Below, in pieces: positions 18 to 24,969 of a stretch of 34,088 bases of DNA. This DNA is from a virus. Lineage: Duplodnaviria > Caudoviricetes. The notes under the pieces were generated by a model. It saw nothing but the letters and a program-made list of their open reading frames with translations, had not been told where the DNA came from and ran no database searches. Both the position numbers and the translations under genes were made by a program. The DNA is taken from positions 1 to 34,088 of the IMG/VR virus record IMGVR_UViG_3300042914_002376; one strand, written 5' to 3'. Positions within the stretch are counted from its first letter, which is position 1. The number at the start of each line of letters is the position of its first letter.

Positions 18-512
18 ATGAACATCCAGAGACGCCCCATCGACTCGCTGACGCCCGACCCGGAGAACGCGCGAACTCACGACGCCGACAACCTCGCCGC
101 CATCGCTGCGAGCCTGAAGGCGTTCGGCCAGCAGAAGCCGATCGTCGTTGATACGCGCGGGGTCGTGCTCGCCGGAAACGGCACGCTCGCCGCGGCGCGC
201 TCGCTTGGGTGGACCGAGGTTGCCGTCGTCGAAACCGACCTCGAAGGCGCGGCCGCAGCGGCGTACGCGATCGCCGACAACCGCACCGGGGAACTCAGCC
301 AGTGGGACTACCAAGCGCTCGCGCTCGCGCTCGAGCAACTGCCCGCCGGGATGGCGCTGGCGACCGGGTTCGAGTCCGGGGCGGTGGAAAGCATTACCAC
401 GCTCGCCCAGCGCATCGAGTCCGAGGCGGCGAGCAAGAAGCCGAAGATCATCACCTGCCCGCAGTGCGGTGCTGAGATCAAGGAGAACACTGATGACGCC
501 GGAAACGATTGA
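18..512 (+). CDS. ParB/Srx-like N-terminal domain protein with C-terminal CxxC motif
   Basis: L.PDPENARTH, SLKAFGQQKPIVV, LAGNGTL.AA, AYAIADNRT.EL; C-terminal CPQCG. Confidence 0.85.
   Translation: MNIQRRPIDSLTPDPENARTHDADNLAAIAASLKAFGQQKPIVVDTRGVVLAGNGTLAAARSLGWTEVAVVETDLEGAAAAAYAIADNRTGELSQWDYQALALALEQLPAGMALATGFESGAVESITTLAQRIESEAASKKPKIITCPQCGAEIKENTDDAGND
385..400. repeat. Dispersed palindrome site 1, TGGAAAGCATTACCAC
   Basis: Fits consensus YGGMARNNRTTACCAC shared by five sites. Confidence 0.7.
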
Positions 513-996
513 CCCGCACGAGCTGCGCTTCTGCGAGACGAACGCTCGTGCGCACGGAGAGCGCAGCATCCGCGCCGTGATGAAAAGCCTCGAACTGTTC
601 GGGCAGCAGAAGCCGATCGTCGTCACGCAGGAGCTCGAGGTGATTGCGGGGCACGGCACGCTCGCGGCCGCCATGCGCCTGAAGATGCCCAAGGTGTGGA
701 TCGTGCGCTCGCACCTGACGGTCGATGACGCCGCCGCCTACGGCATCGCGGACAACCGCACCGCGGACCTCGCCAAATGGGACGAGGAAGTACTCCGCAC
801 GACGCTCGCTCGCATCGCGGCGGAAGACCCCGACCTGCTCGCCGGTTCGGGCTTCTCGAAGAAAGAGACCGAGGCGCTCCTGGCCGCGGCGGCGCAGGCA
901 CCGCTCGCGACGCTCGGCGAGGCGTACGACGAAGCGGTCGCGGACGACGTTGAATGGCGTTGCTGCAAGGAGTGCGGACACCGATGGCCGAAGTGA
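493..996 (+). CDS. Second ParB/Srx-like protein (paralogue of 18..512)
   Basis: ATG 493 after AGGAG (481-485); NARAH, FGQQKPIVV, IAGHGTL, YGIADNRT; C-terminal CKECGHRW. Confidence 0.85.
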   Translation: MTPETIDPHELRFCETNARAHGERSIRAVMKSLELFGQQKPIVVTQELEVIAGHGTLAAAMRLKMPKVWIVRSHLTVDDAAAYGIADNRTADLAKWDEEVLRTTLARIAAEDPDLLAGSGFSKKETEALLAAAAQAPLATLGEAYDEAVADDVEWRCCKECGHRWPK

Positions 997-1979
997 AGCC
1001 GTTTACCGTCGTGAGCACGTTCGCCGGGTGCGGCGGATCGTCGCTCGGCTACAAGCTCGCGGGCGGCAGCGTGCGCCTTGCCGTGGAATGGGACGACGGC
1101 GCGGCGAGCATTTACCGACGAAACCATCCGACGACCGACCTGTTCCACGGGGACATCGCGGCGCTTACGGTTGATGACGCGCTCGCGCGCATCGGCATGA
1201 AGCCGGGCGAGCTCGACATCTTCGACGGCTCGCCACCCTGCCAGGGGTTCAGCATGGCCGGCAGGCGAAACATCGAGGACCAGCGCAACCAGTTGTTCCG
1301 CGAGTACGTCCGCCTGCTGCGCGGCCTGCAGCCGCGGGCGTTCGTCATGGAGAACGTCGGCGGCATGGTCGTCGGCAAGATGCGCCTGATCTTCGCCGAG
1401 ATCCTCCGCGAGCTGAAGGCAAGCGGCTACCGCGTCGCTGCGCGCAAGTTGATCGCCTCCGACTACGGCGTGCCGCAGGCGCGGGTGCGGATGATCTTCA
1501 TCGGCGCGCGCGAAGACCTCGGCATCGACCCGACCCATCCGGCCCCGACGCACGCCCCGGTGTCCGCGCAGCAAGCGCTCGTCGGGCTCGAGCAAGACGA
1601 AGCCGAGGTCGCGCGCCTGCTCGAAATCGGCAAGTCGCGCAAGGCCTACAGCATGTGGCAGTTCATGCGCCCCGGACAGAACCTCACCAGGATCGGGCTG
1701 AAAAGCGGATTCAACACCGTCAAGGTCAACCCGATGCGCCCGTGCCCGACCATCACAAAGAGCACCGCCTACCTCGGGCTCGGTGGCCTGATGCACTGGG
1801 CAGAGCAGCGGCCGTTTACCGTCGCAGAGTTGAAGCGGTTCAGCACCTTCCCTGACGACTTCGACTTCGGCGACGACTACACGAACGCCGTCGAGCGCAT
1901 CGGCAACACGGTGCCGCCGCTGCTCATGAAAGCGGTGGCCGAGCACGTACGCACGACTATCCTCGAGGCAGCACGATGA
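984..1979 (+). CDS. DNA (cytosine-5) methyltransferase
   Basis: Motif I FAGCGG, IV GSPPCQGFS, VI ENV, VIII QARVR, X IGNTVPP; start at ATG 984 after AAGGAG. Confidence 0.95.
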   Translation: MAEVKPFTVVSTFAGCGGSSLGYKLAGGSVRLAVEWDDGAASIYRRNHPTTDLFHGDIAALTVDDALARIGMKPGELDIFDGSPPCQGFSMAGRRNIEDQRNQLFREYVRLLRGLQPRAFVMENVGGMVVGKMRLIFAEILRELKASGYRVAARKLIASDYGVPQARVRMIFIGAREDLGIDPTHPAPTHAPVSAQQALVGLEQDEAEVARLLEIGKSRKAYSMWQFMRPGQNLTRIGLKSGFNTVKVNPMRPCPTITKSTAYLGLGGLMHWAEQRPFTVAELKRFSTFPDDFDFGDDYTNAVERIGNTVPPLLMKAVAEHVRTTILEAAR

Positions 1980-2455: not shown

Positions 2456-4058
2456 CCCTTGGTCGCCCGAGGCGTTCAACAGCATTCCGGGCTTCGACGC
2501 CATCGCGACGCGCGGAGATTCAACATGGAATCCGGCGGCCGCGAAGCACGCGATCGGCTTCATCGAGGGCCTCTGCACGTTCGCGAAAGGAACGTGGGCG
2601 GGGCAGCCGTTCCGGCTCCTCCCATGGCAGCGCGGCGTGATCGGCAACCTGTACGGGTGGTCGCGCCCTGACGGCACGCGACGATTCCGCGAGTGCGGGA
2701 TCTGGATTCCTCGCAAGAACGGCAAGACCGAGCTCCTGGCGCCGCTCGGCCTGTATCACCTTCTCGCTGATGACGAGCCGACGCCCGAGGTCGTGTCGTT
2801 CGCCGCGGACCGTAAGCAGGCGAAGCTCGTTTTCGAGCGAGCGCGCACGATGATCCGCGCCGAGCCCGAACTCGAATCGCGCGTCGAGGTCTATCAGAAC
2901 CGAATCGTCGCGCCGTCGCTTGGCGGGGTGTGGGCAGCGATGAGCAGCGACGCGCCGACGGCGCACGGCCTGCACGTGTCATTCGCCATCGGCGACGAGA
3001 TCCACGCGATGGGAAACCGGCGCGAACTCTGGGAAGCGATCCAGACGTCGATGGGCGCACGCCTGTCGCCGCTTCTCGTGTCGATCACGACCGCCGGAAC
3101 CCTGCGCGAATCGCTTGAATGGGACCAGTACGACTACGCGTGCAAGGTGCGCGACGGCATCATCGAGAACCCGGCATACCTGCCCGTGGTCTACGAAGCG
3201 CCGGAGTCGATGGATTGGCGAACGCCGGAAGCATGGACAACGGCGAATCCGTCGCTTGGCACCTCGCTCCAGGAACGATGGATCGCCGAGGAATGCAAGC
3301 GAGCGCAGGAGCAGCCGTCGTACGAAACCCCCTTCCGGACGCTGCACCTGAATCAGCACGTGACCGCCGACATCCGATGGGTGCGCATGTCCGATTGGGA
3401 TGCGTGCCTGAACGCGGTCGAAGACGACCGCCTGACCGGACTGCCGTGCTACCTCGGCATCGACCTCGGCGAAGTGAGCGACCTCACGAGCCTGACGGCC
3501 GTGTGGCTCGACGGCGACGAAGCGCACGTGCGGTCGTGGTCGTACGCGCCCGAAGACGGCGCCGAGCGACGGCAGAAGCGGGATCGCGTCCCGTACTTGG
3601 ATTGGTCCCGGCAGGGGTGGCTGAAGTTGACTCCCGGAGACGCGACCGACTATGAGTTTCTCCGCGCCGAGATCAAGCGCATCGTCGAGCGGCACAAGGT
3701 CGTCGCCGTCGGCTACGACCCCAACAATGCCGGCGGCCTCGCGCAGCAGCTGCAGAACGACGGCCTGAATCTGAAGCGGGTGCCGCAGTCGTTTCTGCAC
3801 ATGAGCGGCCCGACCCGGCGATGGGAGGCGGCGATCGTCGGCCGCAAGATGCACCATGACGGCAACCCGGTGCTCACGTGGGCGATGAGCAACACGGTCG
3901 TCGAACTCGACTACAACAACAACCCGCGCCCGTCGAAGCGCCGTTCGGTCGAGAAGATCGACCCGGTCGTTGCGGGCATCATCGCCCTCGCGGTAGCGTT
4001 GGACGGCACCCCGCTGATACGCTCGCCCTACGAGGACCGCGGCATCCAATGGCTCTGA
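2415..4058 (+). CDS. terL: Terminase large subunit (HK97/cos-type family)
   Basis: L.PWQ, Walker A IPRKNGKT, Walker B IGDEIH, ITTAG, ANPSLG, nuclease GIDL and KIDP motifs. Confidence 0.97.
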   Translation: MGKRRTSRATRPPDPWSPEAFNSIPGFDAIATRGDSTWNPAAAKHAIGFIEGLCTFAKGTWAGQPFRLLPWQRGVIGNLYGWSRPDGTRRFRECGIWIPRKNGKTELLAPLGLYHLLADDEPTPEVVSFAADRKQAKLVFERARTMIRAEPELESRVEVYQNRIVAPSLGGVWAAMSSDAPTAHGLHVSFAIGDEIHAMGNRRELWEAIQTSMGARLSPLLVSITTAGTLRESLEWDQYDYACKVRDGIIENPAYLPVVYEAPESMDWRTPEAWTTANPSLGTSLQERWIAEECKRAQEQPSYETPFRTLHLNQHVTADIRWVRMSDWDACLNAVEDDRLTGLPCYLGIDLGEVSDLTSLTAVWLDGDEAHVRSWSYAPEDGAERRQKRDRVPYLDWSRQGWLKLTPGDATDYEFLRAEIKRIVERHKVVAVGYDPNNAGGLAQQLQNDGLNLKRVPQSFLHMSGPTRRWEAAIVGRKMHHDGNPVLTWAMSNTVVELDYNNNPRPSKRRSVEKIDPVVAGIIALAVALDGTPLIRSPYEDRGIQWL

Positions 4059-7000
4059 GAGATCTATTCCTGCGCCTGCTCGGATCGGAAGTCCGTCAAG
4101 ACTTCCAGGACAACACGCCCGTCGGCATGCCCGTGTCGTCGGGCATCCAGTCGTACGTAGTCAACTGGGCAGAGACCGGGCGATTCATCACGCCGGAGAT
4201 CGCGCGCTCGAGCCCGAGCGTGCATGCGTGCACGATGCTCATCAGTCAAAGCATCGCCCGCATGGAATGGAAAGTGTTCCTCGAGCGAGACGACGGCCAC
4301 CTGCAGCCGACGCCGTCGCACCCGTTGTATCGGCTGCTGAACACCGAGCCGAATCCGTTCATGGGCGCGCTCACGTGGCGACAGAGCATGCTGCTCGACT
4401 GCCTGTTGTACGGGAACGGATACTCGTACATCGAGCGAGATCCGACCGGGCGACCGATTCGCCTTGAGAAGCTTCGGCCCGACCTGATGACCGCGATGCG
4501 AGCGCCCGACAACTCGGTCGTGTACGCGTACGCGGCAGGGACGCCGGGGGCGCGCACGTTCCCGGCGTTCGACATCTTCCACCTCATCGGGCCGAGTGCG
4601 GACGGACTGTTGGGCGAGCCGCCGATCTACCTCGCGCGCCAGTTGATCGGCATCGAGATCGAGGCCGAATCGTTCGTCGCGTCGTTCTTCCAGAACGGGG
4701 CGCGACCTGCGGGCGTGCTCGAGGTGCAGGGAACGCTCTCGCCTGACGCATGGCAGCGACTGCGACAGTCGTGGCAAGACATGCAAGGCGGCGCGCGCAA
4801 CGCCGGCCGCATCGCCGTGCTCGAGGCCGGGTACCAGTTCAAGCCGATTACGATCAACCCCGACGACGCGCAGCTCATCGAGCTCCGGCGATACTGCCGC
4901 GAGCAGATCGCCGCGGCGTTCGGCGTGCCGCCGCACATGGTCGGCGACTCGACGAAGCAGTCGTATGCCTCGGCAGAGCAAGCCGACCTCGAGTTCACGA
5001 AGCACACGCTCGGCACATGGGCAAGCCGACTCGAAGAGGAGTGCACGCGCAAGCTCGTGCGCGCGGGCGACCGCATGCGCACCGCGATCAGCTTCGACGC
5101 GCTGACGCGCGGCGACATGGGTGGCCGCTTCTCCGCGTACGCGACCGCGTTGCAGCACGGGTTCCTGACGATCAACGAGGTACGCGCGCGCGAAGGTCTC
5201 GCGCCTGTCGAGGGCGGCGAATCGTTGCGCGTGCCCCTGCAACTCGGTCCGTTGCCGACGGCCAAGGACAAGACGCCGACGGCGGCAGAACAGCAAGCCG
5301 CCGGGGTCGGGCAACTGCAGGCGATGACCGCGCTCGCCCAAGCCGCGGCCTCGGGCGCCGTTCCTGCTGATGCAGCCAAGGGGTTGATCGCGGCCGCGTT
5401 CCCCGGTATGCCCGGCACCGCGGTCGCCGGGATCGTCGATCCCCTCGTGCAAGCCGCCGAGGAAGCCGCCAAAGCCGCCCCGCCGCCGGAACCGCCTCCG
5501 ACCCCCGCGACGCCTCCGGACGCCTCTGGGGGCGAACCTGCCCCGCCTGCGACCGGCGAACCCCCGACCGGCGGCGCAACGGTCGAGGGTCGAAGTGCGC
5601 GAGACTGCGGTACCGGAGCGGGAGGGTTTCAACCCGGCAACGCCTGCGGCAGCGGCGGAGACGGTGCAGGAGCAACCGCGACCGAAGACGATAGCAGCAG
5701 CATCCCTGATGCAAGCGACCTGAAGACCGTCGGACGCCTTGGCGGATCGACGGGCGCCGTCCTTGCCGAAGACGCCGACGGAAACCAGTACGTCGTGAAG
5801 GGAGGCAACAGCGCCGACCACATTCGCAGCGAAGCCGCGGCGAACGACCTGTATGCGGCCGCGGGCGTTCCTGTTCCGGCGCATCGCCTCGATGAATCGA
5901 ATCCCGATGCGCCGAGGCAAGTCACGCGATTCGTCGAAGGCAAGCCGATCGGCGACCTGCGCGGCGAGGCGTTTCAGGCCGCAGCGGCGAAACTCTCCGA
6001 GAACTTCGCCACCGACGCGCTGCTCGCGAACTGGGACGTAGTCGGCATGAGCGGCGACAACGTGCTCGTGACTAAGGACGGCACGCCGATGCGCGTGGAC
6101 AACGGCGGCGCGCTCGCATTCCGCGCGCAGGGTGGTCCGAAGGTGTTCGGCGACAAGGTCGGCGAGCTCGACTCGATGCGCACAAGCGACCAAGGGCGAC
6201 GCGTGTTCGGCAAGCTCACGAACGGACAGATCGCGTCGCAGATTCGCGATCTCGGTCGCCGTCGCGCGTCGATCCTGCGAGCAACACCCAAGGCGCTGCG
6301 CGGAACCATGAGCGCACGCCTGGACTACATGGAGCGATGGGCCAAGGAGAATGGCGCGCGCGCTGCCAACGACGCGATCGTGTTTGCCATCGACGACGAG
6401 CGCACGCTGCGAGACTGCGTTGCCGACAAGATCACGCTGCTGCTCGACGAGGGCTACGAGCACGATCAAGCCGTGGCGATTGCGCTCGACTATTGCAACG
6501 GGGAAGAACGCGACTGCGGCACGGGCGCAGGCGGGTTTCAGCCCGGCAACGAATGCGGCAAAGGCGAAGGCGGCGGCGGCGACAAGGACGGCGGCGGCAA
6601 AGACGGCGGCAGCAAAGCCAAGGGCGAATGGGTCGAGAAGAAGGGCAAGGAATACGCCGCGGCGGTGAAGACCGCGGGCGACGCGAAGCTGCACGCCTGC
6701 CTCGTCGCGAAGCACCAGGCCGACGGCCTCACGAAGAAGGAAGCAACGGCCGCAGCAAACCAGGAACTGCTGAGCAGCAGCGACGCCGCGAAGGGAATGG
6801 CCGCAGCGGAGTTCGGCATCGACATGTCCTCGGAAGTGAATCAGGTCGCCGTGAGCGAACTGAAGAACGACCCAGGCATCTACGCGAAGGAGAAGGCGAT
6901 GGCGGCGGGCTACATCACCGCCGCCGCGTCCGGCTCGCAGTCGAATGTCGCGCCCATCAAGGCAGAGCCGACCGCGCCGCCGCCGCAGCCAAAGATGGCG

Positions 7001-7705
7001 CCGACCGTCGCACCGCCGCCGAAGGACCCATCGAAGGAACCGGCGAATCAGCCGCCGAAGGACAAAGCAGGACCGAGCGCGACGCCGGGCACGCCTCCGA
7101 TCGGCATGCTGCCGACTCAGGCGCCGCCTGAATGGGAAGCGTCAACGCCCGAGCCCAAGGTAACTGACGCGCAGAAAAAGGTGATGGAATCCGTGCCGCT
7201 CGCGAGGGCGGCCATCGAGGCGTACTCCGGCTCGAGCTATCGCGAGCTGAACGACAAGTTGCGGCAGATGTCACCCGACTCGTCGCTCGGAGTGGTTCAC
7301 AACATGACATCGAAGCAGGCGGCCATGATCGGCGCCCTCGACGTACTGACGCGCATCGACCAGCGAGATCCGCCGCCTGCGACGGTGTTCCGCGGCGCAG
7401 GAGAGAAAGTCGCGCGCCAGCTCGACGCGCTCGGCGTAGGACAGACATGGACCGAGCGAGGCTTCATGAGCACGAGCACCGAACGCAACGTCGCCGACAA
7501 CTTTGGCAGCGGGAAGGGCGGCGTCGTGATGCGAATCAGTACGCGCCAAGGTGTGTCGATCAGAAACTACGGCGGCCTGTCGGGAGAGCGAGAGGTGCTC
7601 CTGCCTCGCGGCGCACGCTTCCGAATCAAGACCAAGGAATGGCGATACTCCCCGAGTCGCGGAGCGCGCCTGTACGTGGACCTCGAACACGTAGACACCA
7701 ACTGA
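4049..7705 (+). CDS. HK97-family portal fused to a Pro-rich linker, a PI3K/HipA-like kinase domain and a C-terminal ADP-ribosyltransferase (1218 aa)
   Basis: aa 1-400 portal (HPLYRLLNTEPN, LLYGNGY, FFQNGARP.G, IAAAFGVPPHMVG, TINEVRAREGL); kinase GGSTG/YVVK/E/NWD..N/DNG; ART VFRG/FMSTS/EREVLL. Confidence 0.9.
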   Translation: MALRDLFLRLLGSEVRQDFQDNTPVGMPVSSGIQSYVVNWAETGRFITPEIARSSPSVHACTMLISQSIARMEWKVFLERDDGHLQPTPSHPLYRLLNTEPNPFMGALTWRQSMLLDCLLYGNGYSYIERDPTGRPIRLEKLRPDLMTAMRAPDNSVVYAYAAGTPGARTFPAFDIFHLIGPSADGLLGEPPIYLARQLIGIEIEAESFVASFFQNGARPAGVLEVQGTLSPDAWQRLRQSWQDMQGGARNAGRIAVLEAGYQFKPITINPDDAQLIELRRYCREQIAAAFGVPPHMVGDSTKQSYASAEQADLEFTKHTLGTWASRLEEECTRKLVRAGDRMRTAISFDALTRGDMGGRFSAYATALQHGFLTINEVRAREGLAPVEGGESLRVPLQLGPLPTAKDKTPTAAEQQAAGVGQLQAMTALAQAAASGAVPADAAKGLIAAAFPGMPGTAVAGIVDPLVQAAEEAAKAAPPPEPPPTPATPPDASGGEPAPPATGEPPTGGATVEGRSARDCGTGAGGFQPGNACGSGGDGAGATATEDDSSSIPDASDLKTVGRLGGSTGAVLAEDADGNQYVVKGGNSADHIRSEAAANDLYAAAGVPVPAHRLDESNPDAPRQVTRFVEGKPIGDLRGEAFQAAAAKLSENFATDALLANWDVVGMSGDNVLVTKDGTPMRVDNGGALAFRAQGGPKVFGDKVGELDSMRTSDQGRRVFGKLTNGQIASQIRDLGRRRASILRATPKALRGTMSARLDYMERWAKENGARAANDAIVFAIDDERTLRDCVADKITLLLDEGYEHDQAVAIALDYCNGEERDCGTGAGGFQPGNECGKGEGGGGDKDGGGKDGGSKAKGEWVEKKGKEYAAAVKTAGDAKLHACLVAKHQADGLTKKEATAAANQELLSSSDAAKGMAAAEFGIDMSSEVNQVAVSELKNDPGIYAKEKAMAAGYITAAASGSQSNVAPIKAEPTAPPPQPKMAPTVAPPPKDPSKEPANQPPKDKAGPSATPGTPPIGMLPTQAPPEWEASTPEPKVTDAQKKVMESVPLARAAIEAYSGSSYRELNDKLRQMSPDSSLGVVHNMTSKQAAMIGALDVLTRIDQRDPPPATVFRGAGEKVARQLDALGVGQTWTERGFMSTSTERNVADNFGSGKGGVVMRISTRQGVSIRNYGGLSGEREVLLPRGARFRIKTKEWRYSPSRGARLYVDLEHVDTN
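5600..5650 (+). repeat. Intragenic repeat copy 1 encoding RDCGTGAGGFQPGNACG
   Basis: 16 of 17 aa identical to 6509-6559; lies just before the kinase domain. Confidence 0.9.
6509..6559 (+). repeat. Intragenic repeat copy 2 encoding RDCGTGAGGFQPGNECG
   Basis: Matches 5600-5650 with synonymous divergence; precedes the ART-bearing segment. Confidence 0.9.
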
Positions 7706-7905
7706 TGAACACGCCAGACCAAGAACGCGAAACGGATTGGGACATCGTCCCAGAGAACGCCTCAGACGCCGAAGAGGTGTTTCGTCGCAACCTCGCGAGC
7801 GATCTTGTGCTGCGCGACATCGCGCGACGCATCAGCGAAGGCGTTGATCCGGAGGAAGCCGTGAAGCAGGCGAAGGCGTTGGCAGAAGGGAAAGCCGATG
7901 AGTGA
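7705..7905 (+). CDS. Small acidic protein (66 aa), candidate immunity protein for the portal-borne effector
   Basis: TGATG overlap with the portal stop; MNTPDQERETDWDIVPENASDAEE...; function inferred from position only. Confidence 0.6.
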   Translation: MNTPDQERETDWDIVPENASDAEEVFRRNLASDLVLRDIARRISEGVDPEEAVKQAKALAEGKADE

Positions 7906-8785
7906 CGGACACAAGCCGACCGCGGGCATGCGCGAGGAAGCCGAGCGCGGCCTCGCGTGGCGGCGCGAGTTCAATCGCGGAGGCACGGCCGTCGGGGTCG
8001 CGCGCGCTCGCGACATCGCGAACGGCAAGAACCTGTCCGACGACACCGTTCGCCGGATGCACTCCTACTTTGCGCGGCACGAAGTCGACAAGAAGGGACA
8101 AGGATGGAGCCCCGGCGAAGACGGGTTCCCGTCCGCCGGTCGCATCGCGTGGGCGTTGTGGGGCGGCGATCCCGGGAAGTCCTTCGCGGAAACGATTACC
8201 ACTCGACTCAACAAGGAACAAGGACGAACCGACATGAGCACCATCGAAATCCGCACGCGAACCGGCACGCTCGAACACCGCTGCCCGGCCGGAGCCAGAG
8301 GCATCCTTCGCGGCTACGCATCGACCTTCGACGAGCCGTATGACATGGGACGATTCGACGAGGTGATCGCCCGCAGCGCCTTCGCCCGAACGCTGCGCGA
8401 GCAGCCAGACGTCGTAGCCCTCGTCAACCATGACAGCGCCAAGCCCATCGCCAGGACGACGAATGGGTCGCTGCGCCTGTTCGAGGATGAGCGCGGCCTC
8501 GGGGTCGAGATCGAGCCGATCGCCACGACCTACGCCGCCGACCTGATGGAAGCCGTCCGGGCCGGAGTCGTGAACGCGATGAGCTTCGGCTTCAACGTCA
8601 AATCGGACCGATTCGAGCAGCGAGGCGGCAAGGTGACGCGCATCATCGAAGACGTAGACCTGCACGAAGTGTCGGTCGTGTCGTTCCCGGCGAACCCGGC
8701 CACGAACATCAAGCTCGACGCACGAAGCTTCGAGCGATGGGTGGAATCCTCGCGGCGGCGCTTCTTCCTCATCCCGCAGGATTGA
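7898..8785 (+). CDS. HK97-type prohead protease with an extra N-terminal domain
   Basis: GYASTF, LVNHD, LRLFEDERGL, MSFGF, EVSVVSFPA in the C-terminal ~180 aa; ~110-aa N-terminal domain (GVARAR..., RIAWALWGG); possible internal start ATG 8234. Confidence 0.9.
   Translation: MSDGHKPTAGMREEAERGLAWRREFNRGGTAVGVARARDIANGKNLSDDTVRRMHSYFARHEVDKKGQGWSPGEDGFPSAGRIAWALWGGDPGKSFAETITTRLNKEQGRTDMSTIEIRTRTGTLEHRCPAGARGILRGYASTFDEPYDMGRFDEVIARSAFARTLREQPDVVALVNHDSAKPIARTTNGSLRLFEDERGLGVEIEPIATTYAADLMEAVRAGVVNAMSFGFNVKSDRFEQRGGKVTRIIEDVDLHEVSVVSFPANPATNIKLDARSFERWVESSRRRFFLIPQD
8187..8202. repeat. Dispersed palindrome site 2, CGGAAACGATTACCAC
   Basis: Same consensus. Confidence 0.7.
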
Positions 8786-8818: not shown

Positions 8819-9901
8819 ATGTACGACGAGCTGGAACTCGACCTTCGCAGTGGCACGACATCGGCCGACATCGACCACCTCGCTCGCAAGGCGATGATGC
8901 GGGGGCAGCACGCGCTGACGCACGCGGAGATGCGCGCGCTCGGCGAAGCCACCGGAAAGGGCGTCACCGAGAACGGCTTCTACCTCGCGCCGAGCACGTT
9001 CGCGAAGGAATGCGTCTACAAGATCCGGGCACTCAACCCGATCCGAAGGCACGGCGCACGCGTGTTCCGGAACGTCGGCTACAGTCTCAGCGTTCCGGTG
9101 GTGTACGACGACATCACCGCGCTGTACACGGTGCGCGACACGAACAACGACGTGCCGATGACGGAATACACGACGACTCCGACCTTCTCGCGACCGATAG
9201 ATGGCACCGAGGTTGGAGAGGGAGTGCTGCTGTATCCGAGGCAGCAATACGTCTACTTCCGCGCCAGCCTCGAGCTGCTGCAAGACACGAGCGAAGACAA
9301 TGGGCCAGCACTCGAGCGACTGCTCGCAGACATGGCCGCGCAGGCGTTCGTGCAATCCGAGGTCGAGCAGATCATCCGCGGCAGCGGCGACAACGACGAC
9401 CCGATGAACGCGAAGCGCCTTGGTCTGTCGCTGCAGCTGACGAACTCCGCACGCTTGAGTTCAGCAGTCGGAACGGCCGCCAGCGCATTCACCGCGGCAG
9501 AACTCGCGCAGATCATCGAACGCCTTAGCAGCGGCCGCTACGCGCGAGCGATCCACTGGTGGCATCCTCGCATGCTCGGCATCCTCGCTTCGAGCTTCGA
9601 CGCCATGTTCTTCGGAACGAACTTTGCGAAGGCAAAGGACGACACGATGATGATGCTCGCGGGCCGACCGCTGTTCATCGAGCCGACGATCCTTGCGACC
9701 GGCGCCGACTTCATCGCCGGAGCGAAAGCCGGATACGTCATTGATCCGACGGCGTACGTATTCGCCGAAAGCGGCCCGCCGGTCGCGCTGCGACGCCTCG
9801 ACGAACTCGGCGCGGCAAACGGACAGGTCCTGTTCCAGGCATGCCGCCGAATCGACTTTGCCCTCGCCGACGTGGATGCGGCGTTGGCGATCGTTCTCTG
9901 A
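8819..9901 (+). CDS. Divergent HK97-fold capsid-like protein (minor capsid paralogue)
   Basis: E.RAL..G...GFYLAP..F...I.ALNPIR, L.GRP, RRLDEL.A.NGQV.F.A..R.D; aligns by eye with 9943..11229. Confidence 0.75.
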   Translation: MYDELELDLRSGTTSADIDHLARKAMMRGQHALTHAEMRALGEATGKGVTENGFYLAPSTFAKECVYKIRALNPIRRHGARVFRNVGYSLSVPVVYDDITALYTVRDTNNDVPMTEYTTTPTFSRPIDGTEVGEGVLLYPRQQYVYFRASLELLQDTSEDNGPALERLLADMAAQAFVQSEVEQIIRGSGDNDDPMNAKRLGLSLQLTNSARLSSAVGTAASAFTAAELAQIIERLSSGRYARAIHWWHPRMLGILASSFDAMFFGTNFAKAKDDTMMMLAGRPLFIEPTILATGADFIAGAKAGYVIDPTAYVFAESGPPVALRRLDELGAANGQVLFQACRRIDFALADVDAALAIVL

Positions 9902-9913
9902 ATCCACCCAACA

Positions 9914-9942
9914 CCGCACCAACACCCAACAAGGAAACCAAG
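9914..9942 (+). promoter_or_regulatory. A/C-rich leader plus Shine-Dalgarno of the major capsid gene
   Basis: CCGCACCAACACCCA (9914-9928) identical to 13976-13990; followed by AAGGA. Confidence 0.6.
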
Positions 9943-11229
9943 ATGGACGACACCGCACCCGCTGCCGCTCCCGCCCCCGAGGGCGGCGACCAGTACCGCG
10001 CCCTGATCGAGGAGATGGGCAAGCTCTACGAGCGCATGCGCGCCCTCGTCGAGAAGGCGAACCGCCAGGGCGAGATGAGCTCCGACGAAGAGGAAGAGCT
10101 CGCTCGCATGCAGAAGAAGTACGACTCGCTGCGCAGCCTCAAGGAGCGCAACGTGAGCCTCATGCGCCTCGCCGCCGAGCACCGCGACGCCGCCCCGGCG
10201 CCGACCGTGAACGCGGCCGTCGCCCGGCAGTCGAGCAAGGCGACGCACTTCGCGCAGACGACCGAGTACCGCGACGCGTTCAACGCGTACCTCAAGGGTC
10301 CGCGCTTCGTCGGCGACATGGAGCGCCGCGCGCTCAGCGAAGGCACCGACGCCGACGGCGGCTACCTGCCCTCGCAGGACTTCTACTCGACCCTCGTGAA
10401 GGTGCTCGAGCAGCAGGTGATCTACCGCCGCATCGCGAACGTGATGAGCCTCGGCGCGTTCAAGACGAACATCGCGCTCGAGAGCACCATCGCGAGCGCG
10501 TCGTGGGGCGCTGAAGCCGCCGCGATCAGCGAGACGACGCCGCAGTTCGGCCAGCTCGTGCTGCAGCCGCGCCGCCTCAGCGCGATCGTGAAGTCGAGCG
10601 TCGAACTCATCGAAGACGCCCCGGCCCGCGGGCCCGGCTTCTCGGTGGAGTCGATCGTCGCCGACCAGCTCGGCCGCGCGTTCGCGCTCGCCGAGGAGAG
10701 CGCCTTCTCGGTCGGCGTCGCCGGGTCCTACCAGCCCGTCGGCATCTTCACCTACACGAGCTCGGGCATCAGCGACGGCAAGACCTGCGCCTCGACGAGC
10801 GCCATCACGGCGAACGAGCTGCTCGACTTCGTCTACTCGCTGCCGCGCCAGTACCGCGAGCAGAAGTCGACGTGCATCGTCACGAGCGACGCGGTGCTCG
10901 CGCTCATCCGCAAGCTCGCGAGCCCCGGCTCGAACACCTTCCTCTCGTACCTCTGGCAGCCGTCGTTCCAGCAGGGCGAGCCGGACCGCCTGTCGGGCAT
11001 CCCGATCTACGCAACCCAGTACGCGCCGTCCATCGCGGCCGGCGCGCGCGTGGCCGTGATCGGCGACTTCTCGCGCTACCACATTGGCGTGCGCTCCGGC
11101 ATGAGCGTCAAGGTGCTGCGCGAGCTGTACGCGGGCAACGGGCAGATCGGGTTCCAGGCGATCGCTCGCCTCGACGCCGGATGCTCGATCTACAACGCGT
11201 TCCGCTACCTCCGCATGGCGACGAGCTGA
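9943..11229 (+). CDS. Major capsid protein (HK97 fold) with N-terminal coiled-coil delta domain
   Basis: RALSEGTDADGGYLP, S.ELIED, YLWQPS, L.G.PI, IGDFS.Y, VLRELYA.NGQIGF...R.D; strong G/C-ending codon bias. Confidence 0.95.
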   Translation: MDDTAPAAAPAPEGGDQYRALIEEMGKLYERMRALVEKANRQGEMSSDEEEELARMQKKYDSLRSLKERNVSLMRLAAEHRDAAPAPTVNAAVARQSSKATHFAQTTEYRDAFNAYLKGPRFVGDMERRALSEGTDADGGYLPSQDFYSTLVKVLEQQVIYRRIANVMSLGAFKTNIALESTIASASWGAEAAAISETTPQFGQLVLQPRRLSAIVKSSVELIEDAPARGPGFSVESIVADQLGRAFALAEESAFSVGVAGSYQPVGIFTYTSSGISDGKTCASTSAITANELLDFVYSLPRQYREQKSTCIVTSDAVLALIRKLASPGSNTFLSYLWQPSFQQGEPDRLSGIPIYATQYAPSIAAGARVAVIGDFSRYHIGVRSGMSVKVLRELYAGNGQIGFQAIARLDAGCSIYNAFRYLRMATS

Positions 11230-23046: not shown

Positions 23047-23250
23047 ATGACCATCTACATCGCGACCGTCGAATCTCGGCACTTCACCTTCTCCGCCATC
23101 GGCACGACCGCGGCCGCCGCGAAGGGCCACCTCATCCGCGGCCTCGAAAAGCACGGCAAGTCGAACCGCCTCGCGACCGATTGGTTCGCCGACCTTATCG
23201 ACGACATCACCATCGAAAAGATGACCGAGGGCGAGACCGTCATTCGCTGA
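23047..23250 (+). CDS. Hypothetical early protein
   Basis: First ORF after P1; C-ending codon bias; A/C-rich leader. Confidence 0.7.
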   Translation: MTIYIATVESRHFTFSAIGTTAAAAKGHLIRGLEKHGKSNRLATDWFADLIDDITIEKMTEGETVIR

Positions 23251-23279
23251 CCCAACACGCACCCCAACGGATCAACACC

Positions 23280-24200
23280 ATGCCTACCACCGCCACCATG
23301 TCTACCGCCGCTCCGACCCTTCCCGCCGTGACCGCGCTCACCTTCGGCGTCGAGATCGAAACGGGCGTTCCCTTCTCGCGCAACCTCGCCGTCGGCGGCT
23401 ACCACAACGGCCGCACCGTGCCGAACATGCCCGAGCGCGGCATCGTGAGCGGCGCGTGGCGCGCCTCGTCCGACGGCAGCATCAACGTGCCGAACATGCA
23501 AGGCGTCGAGTTCGTGTCGCCCGTCCTCCGCGGCGCCGATGGCCTCGACAACGTCGCGATCGCCGTCGAGCGCATCGCCGCGATGGGCGCCAAGGTGAAT
23601 CGCACGTGCGGCGTCCACATTCATGTCGGCTTCCCGACCAACGACCTCGCCGCCGTTCGTCGCCTCGTGCACCTCGTCGCGCATTGGGAGGCCGCCTTGT
23701 TCGCGACGACGGGCACCAAGAGCCGCGAAGAGAACCACTACTGCCGCTCCATCAAGACCCCCAACGTGCGCACCGCGCGCTACACCTCGACCGCGACCGT
23801 GCGCACCGCGATCAACGCGAACCGCTACCACACTCTGAACCTCATGCCGCTCCTGTCGGGATCGCAGCCGACCGTCGAGTTCCGCGTGTTCAGCGGCAGC
23901 GTCAACCCCAAGAAGATCGTCGCGTGGACGATGCTCGCTCTCGCGCTCGTCGAGGCCGCGCTCAACGGCCACCGCGCCAAGACGTTCGACATGCCCGAGA
24001 CGAGCGTCGCGCGCGAGCGCGGCGAGGGTCGCGGCGAGCGCCTCGTGAAAGCGATGCTCAACGACCTGTTCGTGTGGAACGGCAAGAGCGCGACGCGCGG
24101 GCAGTTCGCGCACCCGACCTACGGCCATGAGTTCATGCGGAAGCAGCTCGTGCGCATGGCCAAGAAGTACGACATGCACGACACCGCCGAAGTCGACTGA
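23280..24200 (+). CDS. Putative amidoligase (COOH-NH2 ligase, Amidoligase_2-type)
   Basis: TFGVEIE, W....DGSI, EFVSPVL, VN.TCGVHIHVG, RY..LNL, TVEFR.F.GS. Confidence 0.88.
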   Translation: MPTTATMSTAAPTLPAVTALTFGVEIETGVPFSRNLAVGGYHNGRTVPNMPERGIVSGAWRASSDGSINVPNMQGVEFVSPVLRGADGLDNVAIAVERIAAMGAKVNRTCGVHIHVGFPTNDLAAVRRLVHLVAHWEAALFATTGTKSREENHYCRSIKTPNVRTARYTSTATVRTAINANRYHTLNLMPLLSGSQPTVEFRVFSGSVNPKKIVAWTMLALALVEAALNGHRAKTFDMPETSVARERGEGRGERLVKAMLNDLFVWNGKSATRGQFAHPTYGHEFMRKQLVRMAKKYDMHDTAEVD

Positions 24201-24234
24201 TTCCCTCACCATCACCAACACGGAGACCATCACA

Positions 24235-24969
24235 ATGTGCGGACTGTTTGCCCTGTTCACCTCGACCCCCGACGCAACCCTCTGCCCCCGTTCCGCGTGC
24301 CGACTCGCCGCGGCGCAAGTCACGCGCGGCCATCACGCGTGGGGCATCGCGTGGCTCGACTCCATCGGCACGATCCGGTCCTACCGAGCGATCGGCCCCG
24401 TCACCGACGGCCTCGAGATCATCGCCGATATCGCCTCGACGGCGACCGCGATGATCGGCCATACACGATGGGCGACGCACGGCGCCGCCGAAGACCTCGC
24501 GTGCGCTCACCCGTTCACGTGCGCGGGCGGATTCCTCGCCCACAATGGCATCATCCCATCGCACGAACGACTCGCCCGCGAGCACGGCCTTCTCTGCACG
24601 AGCGAGTGCGACTCGGAAGTGCTTGCGCGCCTCGTCGAATCGCATGCCGCGAACGGCGCCGCGGGCGCTTTCCGCGCGTCGATCAACGCCGTCGCGCACG
24701 GCGCACCCCTCGCGACGATTGCCCTGTTCGGCGGCACCGACCCGCGCATCGTCTACGCGCGTCGCGGCAACCCGCTTGCGCGCACGACGATGCAACACGG
24801 CAAGGCGACGCTCACGCTCATCGGCTCCAACGTCGCCGCCGCGCCGTCGATCGACGACGACACCGTGACCGTGCGGCACCTGTTCCGCCGCGGGGCGCCG
24901 ACGACCCTGACCCTCGACCGTACCGCCCCGACGATGCGAAACGTCAAGGGCTCGACCCTGTTCGCTTGA
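24235..24969 (+). CDS. Class II (Ntn) glutamine amidotransferase
   Basis: N-terminal MCG, RG..AWG, GHTRWATHG, AHPF, HNGII, DSE. Confidence 0.92.
   Translation: MCGLFALFTSTPDATLCPRSACRLAAAQVTRGHHAWGIAWLDSIGTIRSYRAIGPVTDGLEIIADIASTATAMIGHTRWATHGAAEDLACAHPFTCAGGFLAHNGIIPSHERLAREHGLLCTSECDSEVLARLVESHAANGAAGAFRASINAVAHGAPLATIALFGGTDPRIVYARRGNPLARTTMQHGKATLTLIGSNVAAAPSIDDDTVTVRHLFRRGAPTTLTLDRTAPTMRNVKGSTLFA

Follow-up and report, generated by a model that had tools for sequence, protein, structure and literature searches.

Phage head proteins that carry enzymes as additional domains are the closest described relatives of the system considered here. Effector domains such as PBECR, 2H, Nudix and ADP-ribosyltransferases (ARTs) of the Alt/VIP2 type occur fused to portal or MuF proteins, and the available parts of two reports predict that these polyvalent proteins are packaged and injected (PMC5512222, PMC9503650). 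We have analysed a 34,088-base virus contig (Duplodnaviria; Caudoviricetes; IMG/VR record IMGVR_UViG_3300042914_002376), rated 99% complete and termed the window below, in which one open reading frame (ORF; 4049–7705, plus strand, as are the parts of the polyprotein and the small gene, protease and capsid genes behind it) encodes a portal polyprotein of 1218 residues (128.5 kDa) that joins an HK97-family portal, an atypical kinase-fold domain and an ART. The interpretation to which we incline, with slightly more belief than doubt, is that this single chain is likely cut after arginine by the S78 protease of the phage in the procapsid, that the enzymes are ejected with the DNA to modify proteins of the next host, and that a neighbouring 66-residue protein would keep the ART quiet in the producing cell.

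The resemblance to the polyvalent proteins lies in the presence of several unrelated enzymes in one chain. Their release has been ascribed to embedded metallopeptidases, whereas here the likely agent is the prohead protease, and the CGTG tag described below is unmentioned for portal- or MuF-linked polyvalent proteins in the available text of these papers (PMC5512222, PMC9503650). An initial annotation of this DNA had implied that a portal carrier lacking MuF was new. This was overstated, since portal-fused effectors have already been described computationally in the accessible portions of the same reports (PMC5512222, PMC9503650). Portal-to-effector fusions are in print; for the tag, the kinase subfamily and the ART partner we found no paper. 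Literature queries returned nothing on phage head kinases resembling CtkA, nothing on a protease that frees cargo fused to a portal, nothing on the 66-residue partner of the ART and nothing on the tag; the supplements of PMC5512222, which lie outside the available text, could list the kinase or the motif, and the query on CGTG was too unspecific to be a real test.

In the portions of the sources at hand, T4 Alt is packaged and injected (PMC5512222), and the SPN3US protease gp245 cuts the portal and ejection proteins (PMC10052503). The present ART belongs to the same R-S-E class as Alt and would share its packaging in the head, and the sequence suggests that, as in SPN3US, portal and cargo are processed at a motif proper to the phage. 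The cargoes of T4 and SPN3US are separate gene products of large myoviruses, as far as these sources describe them, whereas here a 34-kb phage, whose tail tube is lambda-like, has its cargo on the C-terminal side of the portal, with the conserved tag following the likely cut. The cargo proteins of T4 and SPN3US carry removable N-terminal leaders. A further parallel is offered by the MuF polymorphic toxins (PMC5576092) and by Bxa, a phage ART blocked by the binding immunity protein Bsi (PMC11699363), again from the accessible parts of the papers. A head-region carrier, a variable C-terminal toxin and a small downstream candidate immunity gene are all found at this locus, with binding predicted; the differences are the lack of a MuF domain and the presence of two enzymes.

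A single portal–kinase–ART chain

The HK97-family portal domain spans residues 57–383 (4217–5197) and matches PF04860 over profile positions 2–321 of 321 (E 1.3e-100; 337 bits against a cut-off of 39.1) as well as PHROG 12 (E 4.7e-115). It is followed by a short helical-looking tail module, which recurs in related portals, and a proline-rich linker (residues 395–513; 5231–5587), with no arginine in 119 residues. The Pfam scan gave no match to the MuF families PF04233 and PF06152 at E ≤ 0.1. The initial annotation was right to describe one uninterrupted 1218-residue frame with a full HK97 portal in its N-terminal part and no MuF domain, and the catalytic motifs that it named are in place (K584, E595, NWD at 661–663, D684, R1115, STS from 1141 and ExE at 1180/1182).

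Portal, kinase and ART form a single chain in six other 90%-identity clusters (P0002–P0007; portal identity 77–99%), and the translation is stop-free in five of five related loci. Since these keep the same open frame, the fusion is real and no artefact of assembly; a stop or frameshift behind the portal, which the initial annotation had named among the things that would refute its proposal, is countered by the same observations. Near-identical DNA was found in lake and freshwater metagenomes, and no RNA data sets are listed among its holders. In one run a single contig, possibly the source of the record itself, spans the stretch with no differences, and contigs from three further studies tile it in pieces, bridging 5156–5586 and 5406–6010 without gaps. 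One contig, of depth 2.4, has a 2-base insertion at 6566; no other frame-breaking change is listed. A programmed frameshift yielding a short portal was considered and rejected, as six of six sequences lack a canonical in-frame slippery heptamer (X-XXY-YYZ), the one type of recoding covered by the search. The ratio of nonsynonymous to synonymous substitution rates (dN/dS) stays below 1 in all of the 18 domain comparisons, out of 20, for which a value was obtained, indicating purifying selection on all domains. Among 2516 matching records of cultured phages, none matches at least 80% of the whole protein.

A two-cysteine tag and a likely cleavage code

Each cargo module is headed by the same short element, CGTGAGGFQPGNxC, which occurs at residues 520 and 823, in both cases after Arg-Asp. 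Tag 1 (5600–5647) reads R518-D-CGTGAGGFQPGNAC and combines a likely head-protease site with the conserved two-Cys tag; tag 2 (6509–6556), R821-D-CGTGAGGFQPGNEC, opens the faster-diverging second cassette. The two copies share 42 of 51 nucleotides. A search with an exact degenerate pattern that omitted the second cysteine returned at least 138 viral loci, with about 410 estimated, and the second cysteine was present in 112 of 112 de-duplicated viral instances. Because this residue was absent from the search pattern, the tag is no chance match.

We scanned 58 tag ORFs from loci with flanks, leaving out four close relatives. A head carrier domain is present in 36 (HK97 portal in 15, lambda portal in 15, Mu portal in one, MuF in two and protease in three), and many of the remainder adjoin genes for a protease, capsid or portal. 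In 12 of the 55 ORFs whose start is complete, no more than 60 residues separate the tag from the first methionine, as in a targeting leader. Among the domains carried as cargo are VIP2-type ART, ART-PolyVal, PARP, zeta kinase, DddA-like, 2H, PBECR and topoisomerase IB. The element marks cargo boundaries across hundreds of uncultured phages; 31 of 114 long HK97 portals carry it and a further 11 carry a variant tag. In P0117, P0119–P0122 and L011 this variant, xxR-(G/A/V)-F-C-x-T-G-x-G-G-G-x-D-x-(S/T)-C, fills that role ahead of the same kinase.

The likely processing enzyme is an S78 prohead serine protease (7898–8785; PF04586, E 5e-42), whose N-terminal part is a mobile helical module matching PHROG 2859. 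The major capsid gene (9841–11229; PF05065, E 9.7e-45) supplies the phage's own cleavage reference in its junction ERR-ALSEG, which resembles K103/S104 of HK97 (PMC10275583), and a first HK97-fold capsid-like gene (8819–9901; PF05065, E 6.8e-18) has the junction EMR-AL. Tag boundaries and capsid junctions were compared by eye in 24 loci with an HK97-fold capsid. Lysine stands two residues before the tag in four of four loci with a lysine junction against none of 20 with an arginine junction; in the latter class arginine holds that position in ten loci and lies two residues further up in one more. As read from the sequences, boundary and junction agree in 15 of 24 loci, nine lack the residue and none has the opposite one. 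The Singulisphaera sp. PoT prophage is concordant for lysine and the lambda-portal locus L011 for arginine. Within the long HK97 portals (n = 114) arginine precedes 37 of 38 tag copies, and xxR precedes 14 of 14 copies of the variant. Lambda-portal groups have EL, EF, RF or E before the tag, and these are echoed, as judged by eye, in motifs of protease-like ORFs at the respective loci. The matching residue mostly precedes other small modules too.

The linkers contain no arginine in 375 residues, compared with 10.2% arginine in 20 other genes, and the longest arginine-free run is 231 residues in the polyprotein against 101 elsewhere. In the 50 residues after the tag, the ratio of arginine to lysine is 43:201 in the arginine class and 28:33 in the lysine class (p 1e-5); the L, A and E classes are also arginine-poor. 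A reciprocal depletion of lysine in lysine-type phages, which we also looked for, is seen only in part. We read the arginine-free linkers and the boundary arginines as signs of selection for cutting only at module borders, and the head protease as the likely means by which the enzymes are released from the portal chain. The initial annotation gave no release step and overlooked both the repeated 14-residue tag and the overlapping 66-residue gene; a release step is likely supplied by the tag, the probable protease sites and the candidate immunity gene.

A scan of genomes yielded 22 loci, of which 13 (on 12 contigs) are true tags and nine, lacking the second cysteine, look like chance. Seven of these 12 contigs belong to Planctomycetota and two to other members of the Planctomycetes–Verrucomicrobia–Chlamydiae (PVC) group. 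Because no true-tag genome has a portal closely related to that of the present phage, a PVC host is only hinted at. One tag locus (L165, 7776–9289; the Singulisphaera sp. PoT prophage) encodes a stand-alone, tag-headed DddA-like deaminase right after the portal, followed by a 126-residue gene, possibly for an immunity protein; its junctions are of the lysine type. Another contig, binned as an archaeal metagenome-assembled genome (L171/L181), encodes a 2419-residue Mu-type portal with a topoisomerase IB end, and the next ORF is tag-headed with six ART-PolyVal repeats.

The kinase-fold domain

Residues 552–769 (5702–6355) form a domain predicted by AlphaFold2 with a local confidence (pLDDT) of 94.5. 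The model shows the features of an atypical kinase: two lobes, a β3 lysine (K584), a helix-C glutamate (E595), a catalytic aspartate (D663) and a Mg-binding asparagine and aspartate (N671 and D684), with the helical C-lobe kept (helices 88–217). In a 20-sequence alignment D663 and D684 are invariant, and K584, E595 and N671 are conserved in at least 90%. An exhaustive structural alignment with VIA places CtkA of H. pylori at the top (Z 13.2; root-mean-square deviation 3.3 over 189 residues), followed by Rio, CotH (11.7), PI4KII (11.4) and HipA (11.0), all with Z of 11–12; actin-fragmin kinase scores 10.9. Foldseek puts actin-fragmin kinase at the top (E 3e-6); the highest TM-score among the matches listed, 0.61, belongs to CtkA. 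Sequence searches of the domain against PHROGs and the PDB gave nothing usable, and a match to PurE (E 0.01) was rejected on the basis of the fold.

The initial annotation had called this region a PI3K/HipA-like kinase. The region does fold as a kinase in the model, and the description holds at the level of the fold, the domain sharing the Lys/Glu/Asp/Asn/Asp catalytic set of the CtkA/HipA/CotH/PI4KII group; at the level of the family it does not. HipA enzymes have the catalytic loop motif N-x-D-x-H-x-x-N. The loop here, NWDVVGMSGDN, lacks the HipA histidine, and the Pfam families HipA_C and HipA_2 score below their cut-offs (12.2 against 30.5 bits and 14.3 against 27 bits), so that we do not regard the domain as a member of the HipA family. 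Its structural model is that of an atypical kinase fold outside HipA proper, at 10–18% identity to the CtkA/HipA group, with an N-W-D-V-V-G motif and a location in phage head polyproteins that set it apart. The same fold group includes lipid kinases. PI4KII is tied with Rio, CotH and HipA and lies below CtkA. The kinase known from polyvalent proteins, compared here by its description in the available text, lacks the C-terminal subdomain and has an insert between His and Asp, whereas the present domain keeps its helical C-lobe in the model, a feature that tends to speak against its belonging to that family.

Relatives occur in head proteins. Long proteins with this domain were tallied by hand for 120 listed of 244 found, and by precomputed Pfam assignments 44 of these 120 bear a head domain (29 MuF, 14 portals of three types and one MuF2); 27 have a VIP2-type ART and eight a Nudix domain. 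The dN/dS of the kinase is 0.06–0.27. The domain occurs in 20 records of cultured phages, and phages of Pseudomonas, Escherichia, Aeromonas and Gordonia are among its carriers. In Pseudomonas phage Dolphis gp117 it is found together with an ART, and in Gordonia phage GodonK gp67 it comes directly after the portal. Because the kinase occurs in cultured phages and the tag in prophages of the Singulisphaera isolates S. acidiphila DSM 18658 (L179) and Singulisphaera sp. PoT, both could be tested at the bench. The same domain is also seen in proteins of about 788 residues that have no Pfam match (many of P0180–P0229, for example P0193) and carry a VTK-SL motif near the N-terminus.

The second cassette and its candidate immunity protein

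The region between kinase and ART had been described as a second low-complexity linker. This needs correction, as it holds a small acidic head-protein module, the second tag and a folded helical domain. The acidic module (C-x-x-x-K-I...AVAIA; 6410–6505), preceded by R788, has a weak match to PHROG 2423 (E 0.0056) and is missing in P0005–P0007. The helical domain (residues ~860–952; 6626–6904; mean pLDDT 79 in the AlphaFold2 model, ~90 in the core) sits inside the 231-residue arginine-free run and has a dN/dS of 0.15–0.32. It has no match in the ESM Atlas and a best Z of 3.9 among 48,161 chains, which shows neither novelty nor its absence.

The C-terminal domain (residues 1047–1218; 7187–7702) is an R-S-E clade ART with an ExE motif, in agreement with the initial annotation. 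PF03496 matches residues 1053–1195 (E 5.6e-12; 45.8 bits against a cut-off of 23.4). Of the solved chains, Vis, HopU1 and Certhrax come closest. The arginine, the S-T and the E-x-E are invariant in nine of nine relatives and the third serine is present in eight. Specificity for arginine would be expected from what is known of the family of ExE enzymes. The dN/dS of the domain is 0.23–0.52.

In comparison with the closest relative, L001, the synonymous divergence (dS) is 0.34 for the portal and 0.46 for the kinase, rising to 1.20 for the helical domain and 1.03 for the ART. Nucleotide identity is about 67–85% over 6600–7800 and returns to about 90% beyond. Because dS jumps in the helical domain and the ART and identity recovers after the small gene that follows, the second cassette, from tag 2 to that gene, has likely been exchanged among relatives as in polymorphic systems. 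Portals 59–71% identical to this one (P0008–P0012) carry other cargo behind the same tag; the initial annotation had suggested a survey for such variable C-terminal cassettes. Its proposal that the portal serves as a carrier is supported.

The small gene (7705–7905) encodes an acidic 66-residue protein (isoelectric point 4.35), and its start overlaps the portal stop (TGATG). A similar small ORF lies 3' of the ART in all nine loci examined. One of them is L011, which has this kinase and ART on a lambda-type portal and whose small ORF is only 24% identical. The close relatives L075 and L047, which do not encode this ART, have no comparable ORF in this position. The predicted complex of the protein with the ART scores 0.77, compared with 0.00 for the best control; the mark applied is reached by 116 of 157 solved pairs and two of 215 mismatched pairs, counts that are only roughly valid for the alignments used. 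Separate runs agree in at least 83% of contacts, with a pLDDT of at least 79 for the partner, and the predicted contacts border the catalytic arginine and serine. In the correct frame the protein matches no named family in the ESM Atlas. It is predicted from these models to bind the ART and is a candidate immunity protein.

Proposed mechanism and alternative explanations

Portal, kinase-fold domain and ART are encoded as a single chain. The C-termini of portals face the capsid interior, according to the available portion of the source (PMC8703570), and since they point inwards up to 12 copies would come to lie inside the head, filling about 1.5% of it if an inner radius of 26 nm is assumed. 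Cuts at R518, R771/R788 and R821, suggested by co-variation, would yield products of about 53 kDa (portal), 26 kDa (kinase) and 42 kDa (ART module), each cargo with the two-Cys tag as its new N-terminus. We speculate that the tag may then serve in retention or ejection. Once free, the enzymes would exit together with the DNA in the manner of T4 Alt and might phosphorylate host proteins and ADP-ribosylate them on arginine for takeover or counter-defence, as family knowledge suggests. The 66-residue protein, from its predicted binding, would hold the ART back in the producing cell. That the enzymes are likely packed, freed and injected is argued by the fact that each is headed by the same tag behind a likely cutting site. 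With a portal fusion the dose would be fixed, at up to 12 copies, and no separate targeting system would be needed. For small tailed phages, in contrast to T4-like and giant phages, little is known about how proteins needed in the first minutes of infection are loaded and released, and a shared tag behind its own protease site leads to exact predictions of cut positions, product masses and mature N-termini.

Several points weigh against this interpretation. Cutting, ejection and enzyme activity are deduced throughout from sequences and models. The tail tube is lambda-like, and the passage of proteins of 26–42 kDa through such a tail is an assumption. Capsid junctions were assigned from likeness to HK97. 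Nine of the 24 capsid loci, all with arginine junctions, have neither residue before the tag. Eight of them, in which a separate ORF carries the tag close to its start, make up a single group; L072 is the remaining locus. The match between junction and boundary (Fisher p = 7e-4) was calculated with these nine loci dropped and relatedness ignored. The linkers are biased towards proline and lysine, which inflates the significance of their lack of arginine, and the mirror test is weak, in that lysine-type extensions are not clearly free of lysine (longest lysine-free runs 42–94 residues, arginine-free runs 51–123). The kinase and ART domains hold 19 arginines each and would need protection by folding. 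Finally, the predicted interface of the ART with its partner does not list the ExE residues, and an immunity partner also fits action in the producing cell.

Action late in the producing cell is indeed an alternative, though in our judgement an unlikely one. The targets of the enzymes would be host or defence proteins close to the head under assembly, modified perhaps so that portal or terminase escapes sensing, or else the enzymes would exclude superinfection; cutting would just clear the head, and the 66-residue protein would time the ART. The available text of PMC9503650 raises this possibility for head-linked ARTs, a binding partner is predicted for the ART, and in SPN3US the cleaved propeptides mostly exit the head, as stated in the accessible part of PMC10052503. 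Such a role, however, needs no fusion to the inward-facing end of a portal. The arginine-free linkers and the placing of the tag on the cargo side suggest a cargo kept intact after maturation, and folded products of 26–42 kDa are far above the size of scaffold peptides. We find it distinctly improbable that the chain is a MuF-type polymorphic toxin on a portal carrier, delivered by the virion mainly to kill or stall competitor cells devoid of the immunity gene, from which a lysogen would profit. A toxin-like domain followed by a small cognate gene, the turnover of cassettes and the DddA-like, PBECR and zeta-toxin domains among other tag cargoes would all suit such a role, for which the available parts of PMC5576092 and PMC11699363 provide models and precedent. 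Yet no integrase or repressor was found among the 32 ORFs scanned, a subset of those of the phage, and the immunity gene would arrive only as DNA, so that a lethal dose would presumably harm the phage's own replication.

We consider it very improbable that the chain stays uncut, the enzymes remaining tethered to the portal crown and the tag acting as a structural or metal-binding anchor or as a recombination hot-spot for swaps. The similarity of the two tag copies at the nucleotide level and the rise in divergence near tag 2 are compatible with recombination, two invariant cysteines could bind metal or close a loop, and nine of 24 loci have no basic residue two before the tag. Against this, which residue precedes the tag (R, K, L/F or E) depends on the head module, and as the portal remains in the virion tethered enzymes would have no host substrate. 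The chance that separate genes have been joined by assembly or annotation through a missed stop or frameshift is practically nil: the shallow contig with the insertion at 6566 stands against an open frame shared by six clusters and five loci, independent contigs that bridge the critical segments gap-free, and the lack of a canonical slippery heptamer in the six sequences.

A broader proposal is put forward here as possible but doubtful. The tag, in the form CGTG(A/S)GGFxxGNxC, would be a portable head-cargo signal of unrelated small tailed phages, standing behind the local protease site (R, K, L/F or E). As a mature N-terminus it would hold a protein in the head and lead it out via the portal; portals, MuF proteins and proteases would be interchangeable carriers for effectors that can be swapped (kinase, three ART clades, deaminase, RNase, zeta kinase and topoisomerase), each with its own immunity gene. 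If this is true, the tag would predict injected proteins from sequence and expose an unstudied family of phage kinases.

Neighbouring genes

The head module runs in the order small terminase, large terminase, portal, S78 protease and two capsid-fold genes. The N-terminal helical module of the protease (7898–8230), resembling PHROG 2859, has homologues in dozens of the fetched loci, where it occurs in portals, in proteases and as separate ORFs. The two HK97-fold capsid genes lie in tandem and each have an xxR-AL junction; the pair is kept in the relatives L061, L075, L083 and L098. Directly 5' of the small terminase lie a ParB-like gene and a C5 cytosine methylase (window 18–1979). Further downstream an Amidoligase_2 gene adjoins a gene for a class-II glutamine amidotransferase (23181–24969), possibly a pair for the modification of peptides or the cell wall.

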